The translations under genes and the position numbers were made by a program. DNA of 64,000 nucleotides from Eledone cirrhosa (lineage: Eukaryota): positions 16,988,001 through 17,052,000 of the forward strand of contig OZ024763.1 of assembly GCA_964016885.1 (NCBI GenBank), written 5' to 3'. Shown piece after piece: positions 1,601-55,845 of the stretch (position 1 is the first letter of the stretch; each line of letters starts with the position of its first letter). Below the pieces are notes generated by a model. That model had not been told where the DNA came from. It saw nothing but the letters and a program-made list of their open reading frames with translations, and ran no database searches.

Positions 1601-1926
1601 TATTTTAATAAATATTTGCTCTACGGTTCTTATATATTTGATATATATTTATCCTTATCGAGCCCTCTTTGGATTTAGTCTTCAAATTTATTATTATTAC
1701 TATATATATATATATATATATATATATATGTGTGTGTATGGATGGATACATGGATATATATATACACACATATATGGATGGATAAATATATATGTATATA
1801 TATATATATATATATATATATATATATATATATATTTATCGTCCATCTTCCACACAAGCAATATATATATGTATGTATATGTACATATATATGTGTGTAT
1901 ATTTAGAAATCATCAGGAATCTCATC

Positions 1927-1977
1927 AGATTCCTGATGATTTCTAAAGAATGAAACAGTTCTAGTCCTGTAGAATCT
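1927..1977 (+). ncRNA. type I hammerhead ribozyme, family B
   Basis: AGATTC-CTGATGA-T TTC taaa GAA T-GAAA CAG ttctagtc CTG T-A-GAATCT; GUA triplet. Confidence 0.85.
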
Positions 1978-2008
1978 CATCTATATATACATATATATAT
2001 ATATATAT

Positions 2009-2131
2009 AGGAAAAGGTATGACCCCGACGGCAGAGCTCATTCCTTTTCCTATTACCCACTCTACTACCCTAAGTATTGAGTACTCTGGTGCGTTATGGT
2101 CCATCTGGTTCCTTACCAGAACTCCTTCGTT
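2009..2131 (+). mobile_element. Family C element, centrally deleted copy
   Basis: Matches 6841-7046; lies between (TA)n tracts. Confidence 0.75.
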
Positions 2132-2159
2132 ATATATATATATATATATATATACATAT

Positions 2160-2480
2160 AGATTTTGAGTATATGTTGGTTGTATACCAACACCTCAGTA
2201 TGCAGGCTGGAGCACTCGACGAAGTGCGCAGGTTGGTTTGGTTACTCCGGAGTAGTGTAAAATAAAGTTAAATAAAAAGTCAAATGTTTAAAATTTAGCT
2301 TCGTTTATTACTGCTATATATATTTCAGTGACAGCCATCTTTGGCTGTGACCTCTTCAGGCAGTCCGAATTAGTGTGGTATAGACAAGTACATATGTTGT
2401 TGAGGTGTATAATATTGTAAATACTCTGATATGCCCAGTTCCTTGTTGGGTTGTTATTTCACTGAGGAACTGGAATCATA
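2160..2480 (-). mobile_element. Family D PLE-like terminus
   Basis: Hammerhead, AATAAA, bulged hairpin 2214-2253, tail into (TA)n; the tail recurs at ~7210-7285. Confidence 0.7.
2310..2364 (-). ncRNA. type I hammerhead ribozyme, family D
   Basis: ACTGC-CTGAAGA-G GTcACAGCCA aaga TGGCTGTcAC T-GAAA TATATA T-A-GCAGT. Confidence 0.88.
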
Positions 2481-50886: not shown

Positions 50887-51082
50887 TTCTTATTACTAAT
50901 GGCATCGCTTTCAGGTTTTTGTCTCACTACACCCTAGTAATTTTGACTCTTAACTCAGACTAGTTGTCAAGTTTTGGGGGTAGAGGGTCGGTCCCTGTGA
51001 TAAAATGATCCCCTGATATTGTCATGTTGTCTGACACTTGTTCTCATTCCTATCAACCACAATATCAGGCTCCCTGTTGTTT

Positions 51083-53450
51083 CTATTGTATTGAGAGTAC
51101 TCTTCATAATATGTGTGCAGTACCTAGTAGTGCTATCTTCTGTATGTTGTATATATTTGTAATATATATACAGTACCTAGTAGTGCTATCTTCTGTATGT
51201 TGTATATATTTGTAATATATATACAGTACCTAGTAGTGCTATCTTCTGTATGTTGTATATATTTGTAATATATATATACAGTACCTAGTAGTGCTATCTT
51301 CTGTATGTTGTATATATTTGTAATATATATACAGTACCTAGTAGTGCTATCTTCTGTATGTTGTATATATTTGTAATATATATATACAGTACCTAGTAGT
51401 GCTATCTTCTGTATGTTGTATATATTTATAATATATATATACAGTACCTAGTAGTGCTATCTTCTGTATGTTGTATATATTTGTAATATATATACAGTAC
51501 CTAGTAGTGCTATCTTCTGTATGTTGTATATATTTGTAATATATATATACAGTACCTAGTAGTGCTATCTTCTGTATGTTGTATATATTTGTAATATATA
51601 TACAGTACCTAGTAGTGCTATCTTCTGTATGTTGTATATATTTGTAATATATATACAGTACCCAGTAGTACTATCTTCTGTATGTTGTATATATTTGTAA
51701 TATATATACAGTACCTAGTAGTGCTATCTTCTGTATGTTGTATATATTTGTAATATATATATACAGTACCTAGTAGTGCTATCTTCTGTATGTTGTATAT
51801 ATTTGTAATATATATACAGTACCTAGTAGTGCTATCTTCTGTATGTTGTATATATTTGTAATATATATACAGTACCTAGTAGTGCTATCTTCTGTATGTT
51901 GTATATATTTGTAATATATATACAGTACCTAGTAGTGCTATCTTCTGTATGTTGTATATATTTGTAATATATATACAGTACCTAGTAGTGCTATCTTCTG
52001 TATGTTGTATATATTTGTAATATATATACAGTACCTAGTAGTGCTATCTTCTGTATGTTGTATATATTTGTAATATATATACAGTACCTAGTAGTGCTAT
52101 CTTCTGTATGTTGTATATATTTGTAATATATATATACAGTACCCAGTAGTGCTATCTTCTGTATGTTGTATATATTTGTAATATATATACAGTACCTAGT
52201 AGTGCTATCTTCTGTATGTTGTATATATTTGTAATATATATATACAGTACCCAGTAGTGCTATCTTCTGTATGTTGTATATATTTGTAATATATATACAG
52301 TACCTAGTAGTGCTATCTTCTGTATGTTGTATATATTTGTAATATATATACAGTACCCAGTAGTGCTATCTTCTGTATGTTGTATATATTTGTAATATAT
52401 ATACAGTACCCAGTAGTGCTATCTTCTGTATGTTGTATATATTTGTAATATATATACAGTACCTAGTAGTACTATCTTCTGTATGTTGTATATATTTGTA
52501 ATATATATACAGTACCTAGTAGTACTATCTTCTGTATGTTGTATATATACAGTACCTAGTAGAGCTATCTTCTGTATGTTGTATATATTTGTAATATATA
52601 TACAGTACCTAGTAGTACTATCTTCTGTATGTTGTATATATTTGTAATATATATACAGTACCTAGTAGTACTATCTTCTGTATGTTGTATATATTTGTAA
52701 TATATATACAGTGCCTAGTAGTGCTATCTTCTGTATGTTGTATGTATTTATAAGTTTTGGAGTTTTAGTTATGTATCCGTCTGTGTGTTTTATTTATCCT
52801 TCCTAAAATAACTATTCTTATAGGTATTGTTTATGTCTTCATCATCCACATTTGGGTTATTTCTCTCTCTAGATCTTTATATTTGGATGATTTCTTCAGG
52901 GTGGCGGATTGGCAGTATCAGTAGAGAGTCAGACACCATGCTTTGCAGCATAGAGTTACGGCCTTTTATGGTCTGAGTTCAAATCCCGCCGAGGTTAACT
53001 TTGCCTTTCATCCTTACGGGGTCGGTAAAATAAAGTACCAGTAATACACTGGGATAATTGCTGGCCTTGTGCCAAAAATAGAAACAATTATTATTATTGC
53101 AACATGGATATCCTGTTTGAAGGGAGAGTTTTATCTCACATAATATGGAATCTATGAGATTTTGATGATGTTATTATTTATTTTGGGTTCAAATCCCGCC
53201 GAGATTAACTTTTCCTTTCATCCTTAGGGGGTCAATAAAATAAAGTACCAGTGACGCACTGGGCTTCGATTTAATCGACTTTCCCCTCCACCAAAATTGC
53301 TGGCCTTGTGCCTATATAAGAAACCATTATAGGTATTGTTTCTATCTTCATCATCTACATTCGGGTTATTTCTATCTCTAGATCTTTATATTTGGATAAT
53401 TTCTTCATTTACTTGATGGATATATTGTCGTCTGTGGGGATAGACACATT
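51083..53450 (-). mobile_element. RLE-type (R4/Dong-like) non-LTR retrotransposon 3' remnants
   Basis: Minus translations NVSIPTDDNISIK*MKKLSKYKDLEIEITRM (53330-53450), KYKDLEREITQMW (52820-52897) and NIQKIALLGTAHIL*RVLSIQ* (51083-51160). Confidence 0.8.
51118..52750. repeat. 53/55-bp minisatellite, ~30 units
   Basis: Unit CAGTACCTAGTAGTGCTATCTTCTGTATGTTGTATATATTTGTAATATATATA. Confidence 0.96.
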
Positions 53451-53678
53451 ATTATTTTTTTTATCAGGGCAGTGAATTGGCAGAGCATCAGATACCATGC
53501 TTTGTGACACAGAGTTACGGCCCTTTGCGTTCTGAGTTCAAATCCTGCCGAGGTTAGCTTTGACTTTCATCCTTATAGGGTCAATAAAATAAAGTATCAG
53601 TAATGTACTGGGGTTGATTTAATCGACTTTCTCCTCTTCCAAAATTGTTGACCTTGGGCCTAAATCAGAAACCATTAT
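52898..53678 (+). mobile_element. three tRNA-derived SINE copies (52898-53095, 53185-53330, 53466-53678)
   Basis: GGCGGATTGGCAGTATC head, B box and shared core. Confidence 0.85.
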
Positions 53679-55389
53679 CCCTACTACTACACAAATGAAT
53701 GTCTTGTAGTAGACTGTTGCTCCTTTTTGCTCCACCAACCATTTAAAAAAAAAATCTTTTTTGTCAATTATATTTATTTATTTATTTATTTATAAGGCCC
53801 AGGTTACTCTACATTAAAAAAAAAAAATTTATAAAAAAAATCTAAAGAAAAAATTCTTTTTTCTAAATTTGGGAGAAAATTTGCTTATTTGCGTATTTCA
53901 TAAAACTTCAATTTTATTCAACTAATTAGCCTTAACCTAATTTTTTTTTCTGTTTTAAAACCGTTTACCCCCAACAAAACATAATTACCTATCATCATTA
54001 TTATTATTACTATTATTATTATTATTATTATTATTTTTTATTTATTTATTTTTTTAAATCTATTTTTGCTCTTTACTATCACGTTGGCAAATTTCCTATC
54101 TTTTTATTAAAATAAAAGACAACAATAAAAACATGAGTTATTAATATAAAATAAATGACCTTAACACTTATGCTTTTTTAAAGTAATTTTTTTTTTTGCG
54201 TGTGTGTGTGTGTGTGTCTAATTATAATTTTCATACAAGATCAAAGTAGTAGACATCGAAGTGGATCTTGAAAAGCAATTATGATAAGAAAACTCACTTA
54301 TTATGGTTTACTTAAAATTACCATAAATTTTTAATTGTGTCAGAAGGCAATTAGACATTAAATTGTATGGGAAATTAAAGATTTTATTACTAATTCATAT
54401 AGAGGTCAGCCACTTCAAAAACAGCTTCGAACAAAGCTTGAACACTTTTCTATTTTTTTTTTTTTTTTCATCTTTTCTGTGTGTTATTTATTATATAGTT
54501 AAGTCTGTCTGTGCTGTCTGAGTCTTTCACTCTGCTTCGAAAACATTAATTATATGTATATATATGTTAGGTAAATCTCTTTCTCCCTCTCTAATATATA
54601 TATATATATTTTTTTTTCCGACGGAATTACTTCACATATATATATATAAATAATGTATAGTGTATGGACGTTAAATGATGGTGATAACAATATAGACGTG
54701 TGTGCATTCATGTGTAGCTATGTATGTATATGTTTGTGTGTGTGTGTATATATATATATATATCTCATCACCAACATTTAACGTCCATTTTCCACGCTAA
54801 CATGGGTTAGATAAGTTGTTCTGTTTTGAGACAAGCTTTTTATATCAACTTTGACAAAATGAAAGGTGAAGTTCAACTCTGCAGCCACACACTCTTAACT
54901 ACTCTGTCAACTCACATACATACAGGTAGACTATTACTAAATAGAGTAAAAAATATATGAAAAAAATAGAACATTTGCAGCTGGAATGTCTTTGATCATA
55001 GAGGTGTTGGTTCAAGACTGACCTGGGCTAAATAATAGCAGCAACATGGTATGATTGGACCCATAACTCCTGATGAAGTTGTAGGGGTGTCATCGAGACA
55101 TATGGTATGCCTTGGGTATTTTAAACCTAGTGGAGCCCATCCCTTCCCTCTTCCTTCAAGTCTGGACGCAGCTGATTTCTTCCAGAGAAGGAGTAAGAGA
55201 GAAAGAGAGAGAGAGAGAGTGTGGTGAGAGTGGAGAATGATAGAGAAGTTGTAAGATGGAGTTGTAACGACCTTGTAGTATATGGACCTTGTAATATATA
55301 TATATATATATATATATATATATATATATATATATATATATATATATATATATTATGTATATATATGTATATATATATATATATATGTA

Positions 55390-55845
55390 TAAAACATTTA
55401 AATATAAATTAATATATATGATGAAACACAAATACCAACATATCTGTATTTATATTGTAAAAGAAAATTTGGTTAGGGTTAGAAAATTTAGTCAGGACAT
55501 GATATCCTTACACTTTTTTATCTCGAAACATATTTGGATTTTAAAGTTTAAACTTCTCTACGGAACAGGTTTGATTTTGAAATTTAAATGTGTCTAAACA
55601 TCAAGGCCATTTGGCAATACTGTTTGTCTTTGTTGATTTATTATTTTAAATCGATGTGGGCAGACTGTAATATTATAATTAGTATACTTCATTCTAGCTA
55701 ACTAAATCTTCTTTTACAATATAAATACAGATATGTTGGTATTTGTGTTTCATCATATATATTAATTTATATTTAAATGTTTTACACGGCTCAGAAATAT
55801 TTCTTTCTTTGAGCTAATTTCATTGTAAAAGAATTCATTAGACTT
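55390..55845 (+). mobile_element. Family K inverted element with the shared tail hairpin but no recognisable hammerhead
   Basis: Arms 55390-55476 and 55698-55784; GCTC AGAAA tatttc TTTCT TT GAGC at 55789-55814; flanked by (TA)n. Confidence 0.65.

Follow-up and report, generated by a model that had tools for sequence, protein, structure and literature searches.

What does a short bulged hairpin do that recurs near the 3' ends of otherwise dissimilar repeats carrying hammerhead ribozymes, and why do inverted repeat arms stop beside it? The question was raised by a stretch of 64,000 nt of the Eledone cirrhosa genome (3.0 Gb), positions 16,988,001-17,052,000 of OZ024763.1, hereafter called the window, which has a GC content of 33% and in which (TA)n is abundant throughout. 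Judging from their sequences, the window elements that can be traced are 3'-end remnants of Penelope-like elements (PLEs) of the Hydra clade. The hairpin would be a cis signal whereby the Hydra-clade PLE protein selects the starts of its reverse transcriptase (RT) on the sense RNA, a reading to which we give a probability of about 0.7; within it, binding at the RNA level, priming through TA microhomology and the coordination of two primings are what we infer. Families of elements are lettered below and are listed after the evidence.

All 12 stretches given in the preliminary description of this DNA are present with a CTC...GAG basal stem, and 11 of them fold with a 3' bulge. The predicted fold of 40337-40355 consists of the basal stem only, a 3-bp upper stem with a G-U pair being nonetheless present, and the outer pair is absent from this copy in 6323-6354. 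One case had been read on the wrong strand: at 43892-43937 the pattern lies on the minus strand, within a larger repeat, and in that orientation it is not downstream of a hammerhead. The full motif reads R-CTC, an upper stem, a T(T,C,A) bulge, GAG-Y and RC, mostly RCT, the conserved part extending three bases (RC, usually RCT) beyond the version first described. This extended motif has 14 matches in the window against a mean of 0.73 and a maximum of 4 in the 60 block-wise dinucleotide shuffles from which chance was estimated, and a microsatellite lies 34-66 nt downstream in 13 of the 14. When 400 kb of arbitrarily placed genome stretches were scanned, a bulge of 2 nt gave 50 matches and a bulge of 0, 1, 3 or 4 nt gave 10-22. 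The proposal that the short inverted arm stops at RCTC stood for six of the 12 elements tested (11 listed sites and 58349), in which the arm ends 1-7 nt before RCTC (1618, 6974, 28723, 40337, 45860 and 55789), but five have no inverted arm within 2.5 kb and one has a microsatellite-only match. Hammerhead cores lie beside several families, but within the window none was found beside 29462, 40600, 45860 or 55789.

The hairpin had been regarded as a single mark at the arm stop. This describes the short end, but a second hairpin exists, and the long end stands in the same relation to it. H1 denotes the hairpin that follows the hammerhead, the short end lying 5' of it, and H2 the second hairpin, which precedes the ATG and belongs to the long end. 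In copies that read through, the order is hammerhead, H1, H2, ATG, and the second hairpin has the same form and stands a few bases past the usual end of the tail. The hammerhead is 30-75 nt upstream of H1, the spacing between H1 and H2 is 76-99 nt in the E. cirrhosa genome, and the ATG of a Hydra-type open reading frame (ORF) is found 14-63 nt 3' of H2 in families D, B, X, E1-E4 and P; a Hydra-type ORF follows H2 in four more read-through loci. In this genome the outer pair is mostly A-T in H1 and G-C in H2. Both hairpins and both ends are retained in family G, which has no ORF. A genome pattern for the double hairpin gave 1873 matches against 59 for the reversed control, the initial pattern being dominated by a 58-nt H1 satellite, of which 28 loci (L112-L139) were excluded from the family and pair counts.

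The positions at which copies end were mapped with 10 read-through references against the same 400 kb and the window. Among 94 reference matches, 78 have a TA junction and 16 do not, so that insertion is into (TA)n: 78 of the 94 mapped ends adjoin a TA run. Of these TA junctions, 41 fall within 16 nt 5' of H2, 32 within 16 nt 5' of H1 and 5 elsewhere. Hence, as the preliminary description had expected, endpoints are not random relative to the hairpin (73/78). The junction usually lies in a TA microhomology of 2-7 nt, 2-12 nt before the hairpin, and in family D it is found 5-8 nt before H1 and 3-6 nt before H2. TAT or ATA occurs in the 12 nt before the hairpin in 37/45 cases against a background of 40%. 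For family X, loose ends in TA were found at both sites in raw DNA reads (one run) and in contigs of three more, two of these three contig sets being labelled as other organisms, and the read depth drops more than 100-fold across the H2 site in the raw reads; therefore the end pattern is not an assembly artefact. The "tail" of PLEs is the interval from the H1 site to the H2 site.

The two kinds of end are also paired. Counted in the same sequence, 30 head-to-head pairs comprise 24 short+long, one short+short, no long+long and five unclassified pairs, an excess of short+long that has P=5e-7 under independent end choice at the observed frequencies. This is illustrated by family D insertions selected by their long arm, the partner of which ends short in 36/36. 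A candidate long+long head-to-head insertion, L198, was rejected, being actually tail-to-tail across a TA run. The two arms of family D insertions share non-CpG subfamily letters (6/6 versus 0/30; 4/4 versus 0/32) and do not share CpG-decay letters (1/8; 0/4). In 10/24 pairs the short arm extends beyond the 5' limit of the long arm by at least 10 nt, and that of L061 contains a whole additional unit which the long arm does not have; with sequence that the long arm lacks, a short arm is not its fold-back copy. Because such short arms are no copies of the long one, and a short 5'-truncated arm is without the tail present in the long arm, two primings are needed. Short ends also terminate full-length direct copies, often.

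The families had been taken for unrelated, a view that has to be abandoned: all those traceable to an ORF are Hydra-clade PLEs. No Hydra-type PLE ORF is present in the 64-kb window, in which the PLE content consists of short element ends only. Loci fetched around window family G contained unrelated PLE nuclease fragments, and one of these used as query yielded 150 scored matches, with open frames of up to 821 codons. The 821-codon frame of L100-L102 has YRDDG and a C-terminal nuclease-like part of the GIY-YIG type, and the L100-type protein is 34-38% identical to eight aligned homologs. Pfam alone identified neither an RT nor a nuclease domain in this protein, and no structural relative was found in the PDB. 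In the accessible text of PMC8557442, the Hydra clade is defined by an N-terminal RWK, DKT, a CxCX5C linker, the lack of CCHH and C-terminal CxxC and CxH. From the protein and its alignment, L100 has DKT instead of DKG, the CxCX5C linker, no CCHH, and CxxC and CxH near its C-terminus; the RW motif is RWK in L146 and RWR or RWT in D, E, P and X. The sequence that precedes the 821-codon Hydra ORF is the tail at window 29462-29550, and read-through copies link window families D, B, E-type and F to Hydra ORFs. In families A, C, J, K and M the hairpin and the rule for the ends are as in the others, yet none of them could be followed to a parent ORF. Family A has 20 further copies sharing the end position, none of which reads through, with a query that included most of the tail. 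Hammerhead core words, recognized as candidates by their letters, precede H1 in X, B, E and G and in the majority of metagenome loci. A search of Rfam gave no match at E up to 0.5 in seven double-hairpin loci, and among 150 listed of 449 matches in the window all were microsatellite-driven and under the gathering score.

Hydra-clade elements are further described as inserting into (TA)n, carrying a hammerhead in the pseudo-long terminal repeat (pLTR), forming partial tandems whose inverted arms are truncated 5', having a one-sided tail and generally measuring <3 kb (PMC8557442). The present elements are in line with this in their ORF motifs, pLTR hammerhead, (TA)n targets, partial tandems, inverted truncated arms and one-sided tail. 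They differ in the tail, of 76-99 nt here against 30-40 nt, and in the unit, of ~3.5 kb against <3 kb. Indeed, family D has a tandem period of ~3.54 kb, and X consists of a 2.5-kb ORF and a 3' untranslated region (UTR) of >1 kb.

Covariation was counted on hairpins anchored by script. In 65 hairpins of loci selected by protein from metagenomes and genome contigs (below), each positioned by the closest CTC irrespective of pairing, Watson-Crick pairs at upper positions 1-4 numbered 52, 36, 30 and 32 against 31.6, 19.0, 16.2 and 17.9 when the partners were shuffled, which bears out the claim that the upper stem covaries. The 2-nt register pairs 132/195 against 52-73 in other registers. The bulge of these 65 hairpins is TT in 36, TC in 18, TA in 6 and another pair of letters in 5, with ACT next in 58, and the outer pair is G-C in 51 and T-A in 3. 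In 42 hairpins of E. cirrhosa itself, retained after 8/50 candidates without CTC had been dropped, the outer pair was formed in 31 against 18.4 in shuffled sets and the upper pairs in 30, 25 and 21 against 16.6, 14.6 and 11.3, the fourth not being significant; these counts are too low, since the regular expression had anchored 4/9 H2 wrongly. A tree of 27 ORFs, four short rows of which have unreliable positions, places switches between T-A and C-G at the first upper pair of H1 inside three or more well-supported groups of metagenome loci, with further switches among the families of this genome. The inner CTC/GAG pairs scarcely vary, and their pairing is indicated by isolated variants only (family F H2, Hydra-1_Crog). 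In context, the predicted basal pairing is >=0.4 for both hairpins in 3/7 references (D, X and E2).

Conservation beyond this genome was assessed on loci chosen by their protein alone, namely 78 metagenome Hydra-type loci from the best 80 of 416 matches, and a further 10 from genome contigs that are probably host DNA within symbiont assemblies. Of these 88 loci, 41 had at least 110 nt 5' of the ORF, 34 of them non-redundant. At least one hairpin occurs in 30/34 of these 5' regions and two, 57-83 nt apart, in 20/34, while the reverse strand has six single matches. The density amounts to 51 matches in 5,775 nt of 5' regions against 46 in 145,670 nt of ORF interior. Among further 3' regions, 13/26 have a hairpin and 13/26 do not, several of the latter stopping first at (TA)n. 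All six mappable metagenome TA junctions lie 2-11 nt before the hairpin, the 25 other alignment ends being contig ends or lacking a TA run. A single-protein metagenome scan and a viral scan gave no matches. By eye, the consensus file of PMC8557442 has the exact motif twice in Hydra-1_Ajap, 61 nt apart and before the ATG, and the exact motif also in Hydra-2_Ajap and Hydra-2_Amil; in total, three of its six consensi are exact, two are variants and one has none, the carriers including consensi from coral and from sea cucumber. End mapping and cross-taxon conservation both uphold the PLE origin that had been suggested for the hairpin and argue for its putative role in positioning initiation. At L307 and L309-L316, Hydra-type PLE ORFs stand in contigs of bacterial assemblies from animal-associated samples and are probably host contamination.

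How the cis signal might act can be formulated as follows. The protein would dock on one hairpin, H1 or H2, of the sense RNA, and the nicked (TA)n target would pair with a few U/A bases 1-12 nt 5' of that hairpin. Copying would proceed away from the hairpin, leaving the docking hairpin itself uncopied. A start at H1 would give a short end, and a start at H2, by copying H1 and the spacer, a long end; a head-to-head insertion would then correspond to two separate primings, one per target strand and one per hairpin. Since full-length copies often stop at the short end, their sole hairpins are those just behind the upstream hammerhead, which suggests a template circle, a multimer or a jump from 5' to 3'. 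A circular template has been proposed for PLEs with hammerheads (PMC4209133), and hairpins just behind the cleavage site fit the circular or multimeric template of such proposals (PMC4209133; PMC7229834; preprint 10.64898/2026.07.22.740005), the accessible text of which says nothing of a recognition motif downstream. Family G, having no ORF, acts like a PLE-dependent element in the sense of the same three works. More tentatively, and with somewhat less than even odds, two RTs loaded side by side on one RNA at the tandem hairpins would carry out PLE integration, one starting at H1 and the other at H2, each priming from one strand of the cut target and the rear one displacing the front complementary DNA (cDNA). 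Given a circularised template cut by the hammerhead, this single rule would account for the tail, the head-to-head arms, the partial tandems and the pseudo-LTRs; the logic of two sites would also extend to other PLE clades, with different sequences.

Small conserved RNA folds that position RTs are found in the R2 3' UTR, in the 3' stem-loops of LINE2 and short interspersed elements (SINEs), in epsilon of hepatitis B virus (HBV) and in the telomerase boundary element. The bulge of HBV epsilon is the first template, with protein priming, and the telomerase template boundary element lies 5' of the template and halts synthesis. Compared with these, the signal considered here is internal and duplicated, stands close to the unit's 5' end and 3' of the stretch that is copied, and would be excluded from the copy that it sets. 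The two analogies drawn in the preliminary description are a poor match. Because element ends fall 5' of the hairpin and outside it, the bulge does not serve as first template in the manner of HBV epsilon, and there is no sign of protein priming; unlike a telomerase boundary element, the hairpin stands 3' of the RNA that is copied, and every long arm includes a copied H1.

Both ends could instead be fixed in DNA, the RT running through and the GIY-YIG nuclease reading the motif in DNA and cutting the AT-rich bases just 5' of it. The tail is ascribed to endonuclease-mediated resolution in PMC8557442, the accessible text of which leaves the hairpins unmentioned, though the motif stands in its consensus file. 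Likewise, PMC11167929 shows cleavage at AT-rich sites and cites an earlier report of a Penelope endonuclease needing the tail for recognition. The near-invariance of RCTC, GAGY and RCT, like that of a DNA site read by a protein, and the weak strand bias of G-U pairs would also agree with this. We nevertheless consider it unlikely, as covariation of the upper stem and the free loop length point to a single-stranded fold, not to duplex DNA, as RT starts, not cuts, were mapped to both tail boundaries in another clade (PMC11167929), and as the junctions lie in TA microhomology.

Even less probable is that the hairpins serve translation, a promoter, hammerhead folding or RNA packaging, the ends being the nearest single-stranded UA patches able to pair with the (TA)n primer. 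These UTRs contain many other TA patches, yet 73/78 junctions are confined to a pair of 17-nt windows in a reference of 430 nt; family G has retained the two hairpins and the two ends with no ORF, and the strict pairing of short with long would stay unexplained. Such a role would nonetheless accommodate the position of H2, always 14-63 nt before the ATG, the TA-rich flanks of the hairpins, the end kept by family F despite its reduced H2 and the repeated ATAT word at the ends of a second PLE clade (below). As to a fold-back with stop, in which a single cDNA, having started at the long end, would fold back to copy itself until the H1 fold, like a boundary element, stopped it, it is already disfavoured and its chance seems very small: the arm lengths given above and the extra unit of L061 run counter to it, full-length direct copies also close with short ends, and H2 would still need another job at the long end. 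Arm junctions are often near-palindromic and arms share subfamily variants, as such a fold-back would have it, and self-priming from such palindromes has been proposed (accessible text of PMC3846280).

Several observations weigh against a hairpin-guided choice of RT starts. Family F has a precise long end, yet its H2 has only 4 bp, with no bulge and no upper stem, and the long end of family K lies ~10-16 nt before H2 on a diverged reference. No read-through copy was found for families A, C, J and M, hence no H2 is shown for them. Regarding the fold, the shuffle p-values for covariation ignore relatedness, pairing of the inner basal positions is not proven by covariation because these three pairs served as search anchors and hardly vary, and the sense strand is barely favoured by G-U over A-C (14 versus 9). 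Predicted basal pairing is uneven, with 0.38-0.99 for E1 and <=0.11 for H1 of B and both hairpins of G and P. Comparisons of arm length depend on BLAST ends close to self-complementary sequence. In the consensus file mentioned above, by eye, Hydra-1_Crog (both ends) and Hydra-1_Amil have variants only, and in Hydra-1_Obim no motif is visible at either consensus end. In PMC11167929, the starts of Poseidon PAc are placed inside an AC-rich stem-loop, not 5' of a hairpin. Finally, a second PLE clade of the same genome, with a CCHH-type nuclease, has two fixed ends 56 nt apart and no RCTC motif. In this clade, represented by one family, ATATCG...GATA follows both ends and precedes the ATG, with no predicted fold. 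This hints at the same two-site logic written in other letters, and the repeated ATAT may also be only a priming patch. L051, a candidate for the RCTC motif in the second clade, was rejected as a nested piece of another family, 0/39 other top copies passing the hairpin start.

For a comparison with biochemistry, Poseidon PAc of Anolis is described in the accessible text of PMC11167929 as extending both target strands in vitro, with internal RT starts at both tail boundaries, RNA required 3' of the starts and a predicted dimer. The likeness lies in two internal starts bounding the tail, RT starts there and mapped ends here. PAc differs in belonging to another clade, in having its tail inside the ORF and in its one AC-rich stem-loop taken from a single-sequence fold, with no repeated or covarying motif and no start-to-structure rule in that text (PMC11167929). 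In the accessible literature nothing was found that describes the motif, its occurrence as a pair or the rule for the ends; a description might still exist in subscription papers, Repbase notes or supplementary figures. PLE elements, hammerheads, inverted arms, the tail and internal initiation were already known. What is new is a clade-wide cis motif of a known element class, which makes the origin of the PLE tail directly testable. The origin of the inverted arms and one-sided tail of PLEs, the closest relatives of telomerase RT, has long been a puzzle; a short duplicated motif, conserved across distant animal hosts at a fixed offset to both ends, turns the tail question into a clean experiment. 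Besides, the motif is an exact marker by which curators can recognize Hydra-clade boundaries and ORF-less passengers, and it points to a minimal RNA tag that might let the protein copy a chosen RNA into (TA)n repeats.

The elements of the window, including family D copies beyond those first described, are:

711-1700, plus strand: family A head-to-head insertion, of which the short arm (minus strand) stops ~2 nt short of the hairpin position; long arm with a hammerhead-like core (CAGAAGA variant, 1546-1569) and a tail to (TA)n
1618-1663, plus strand: H1 hairpin of family A, with a G-C outer pair and a TC bulge
2007-2130, plus strand: family D insertion, with a short arm (minus strand) and a long arm, H1 at 2059-2082
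2158-2388, minus strand: 3' remnant of family B, with its hammerhead core at 2323-2359 and H1 at 2214-2253; the long end lies 3-9 nt 5' of H2 as placed in the read-through copy L146, where H2 precedes a Hydra ORF
6201-6510, minus strand: remnant of family C, with its hammerhead core at 6416-6446, H1 with a broken outer pair at 6322-6355 and a tail of ~120 nt
6842-7047, plus strand: family D head-to-head insertion; short arm 6842-6902 ending 5-8 nt before H1; long arm with H1 6974-6997, ending 3-6 nt before H2 of read-through L141, after which a Hydra ORF follows
20555-20762, minus strand: remnant of family E type, with its hammerhead core at 20713-20749, H1 at 20621-20642 and a tail reaching (TA)n; in read-through copies of related E families, H2 is followed by Hydra ORFs
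28126-28793, plus strand: family G, ORF-less unit of ~1.3 kb; short arm split by another repeat and ending 7 nt before H1; hammerhead core 28596-28651, H1 28723-28758; long end 5-8 nt before H2 of L061
29462-29550, plus strand: tail-only piece of family X, with H1 at 29462-29486 and a tail that stops 6-11 nt short of H2 as placed in L100, the autonomous Hydra element of 821 aa
33504-33527, plus strand: further family D H1, missing from the earlier list
36281-36309, minus strand: second PLE clade, also in L228, L051 and L067; ORF of >1000 codons with an N-rich insert
40290-40521, minus strand: family F head-to-head insertion, H1 40337-40355, hammerhead core 40399-40421; plus-strand short arm ending 5 nt before H1; read-through copies reach a Hydra ORF via a minimal 4-bp H2 without bulge
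40600-40619, minus strand: H1 of an F-like family, with a 51-nt tail to (TA)n
42815-43011, plus strand: further family D short+long insertion, H1 42934-42957
43892-43937, minus strand: A-type hairpin in a larger repeat, recurring with shared flanks in L058; not an independent case
45484-45680, plus strand: further family D short+long insertion, H1 45608-45631
45860-45923, minus strand: family J H1, with a long upper stem and a TA bulge; inverted short arm ending 1 nt before it; no parent found
55789-55814, plus strand: family K H1; inverted short arm ending 4 nt before it; the related L210 and L211 carry H2 80 nt on, with no clear Hydra ORF in the 600 nt fetched
57122-57759, minus strand: two further family D long+short insertions, 57122-57313 and 57582-57759, H1 57636-57659
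58349-58378, minus strand: family M hairpin with a tail to (AT)n; no read-through found

Some of these elements call for a remark. The hammerhead-like core of family A (window 1546-1569 and 43746-43769, plus strand) reads CAGAAGA, not CUGANGA, in nearly all of the 23 copies listed; the family is young and abundant, and this core may be a U4A variant or a ribozyme without activity. Tail-only pieces, at window 29462-29550 and L051 4328-4440, start at the short-end position and end at the long end, and look as if synthesis started at H2 had aborted at the H1 site. An A-family remnant is nested in a larger repeat with shared flanks (window 43310-43980, L058 7050-7560), at the right end of which a GC-rich hairpin is followed by CTAG, a pattern that we take to resemble a Helitron 3' end. 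In family Q (L162 and L218, and on the minus strand L047 and L037), the hairpin is followed by a 75-nt tail, and a degenerate extra hairpin stands 64-80 nt upstream in 2/4 copies, possibly making three sites. The 58-nt satellite (G000:C1:14234975-14242636, L112-L139) extends over many kb, each unit consisting of the family D H1 hairpin with short flanks. Besides, the window contains minisatellite arrays at 10624-12998, 21452-24927, 31100-32509, 41266-42170 and 51110-52740, with periods of ~72, 40, 61, 65 and 53 nt, and the units of the 41266 array derive from a piece of an abundant dispersed repeat present at 7304-7403 and 16142-17127.

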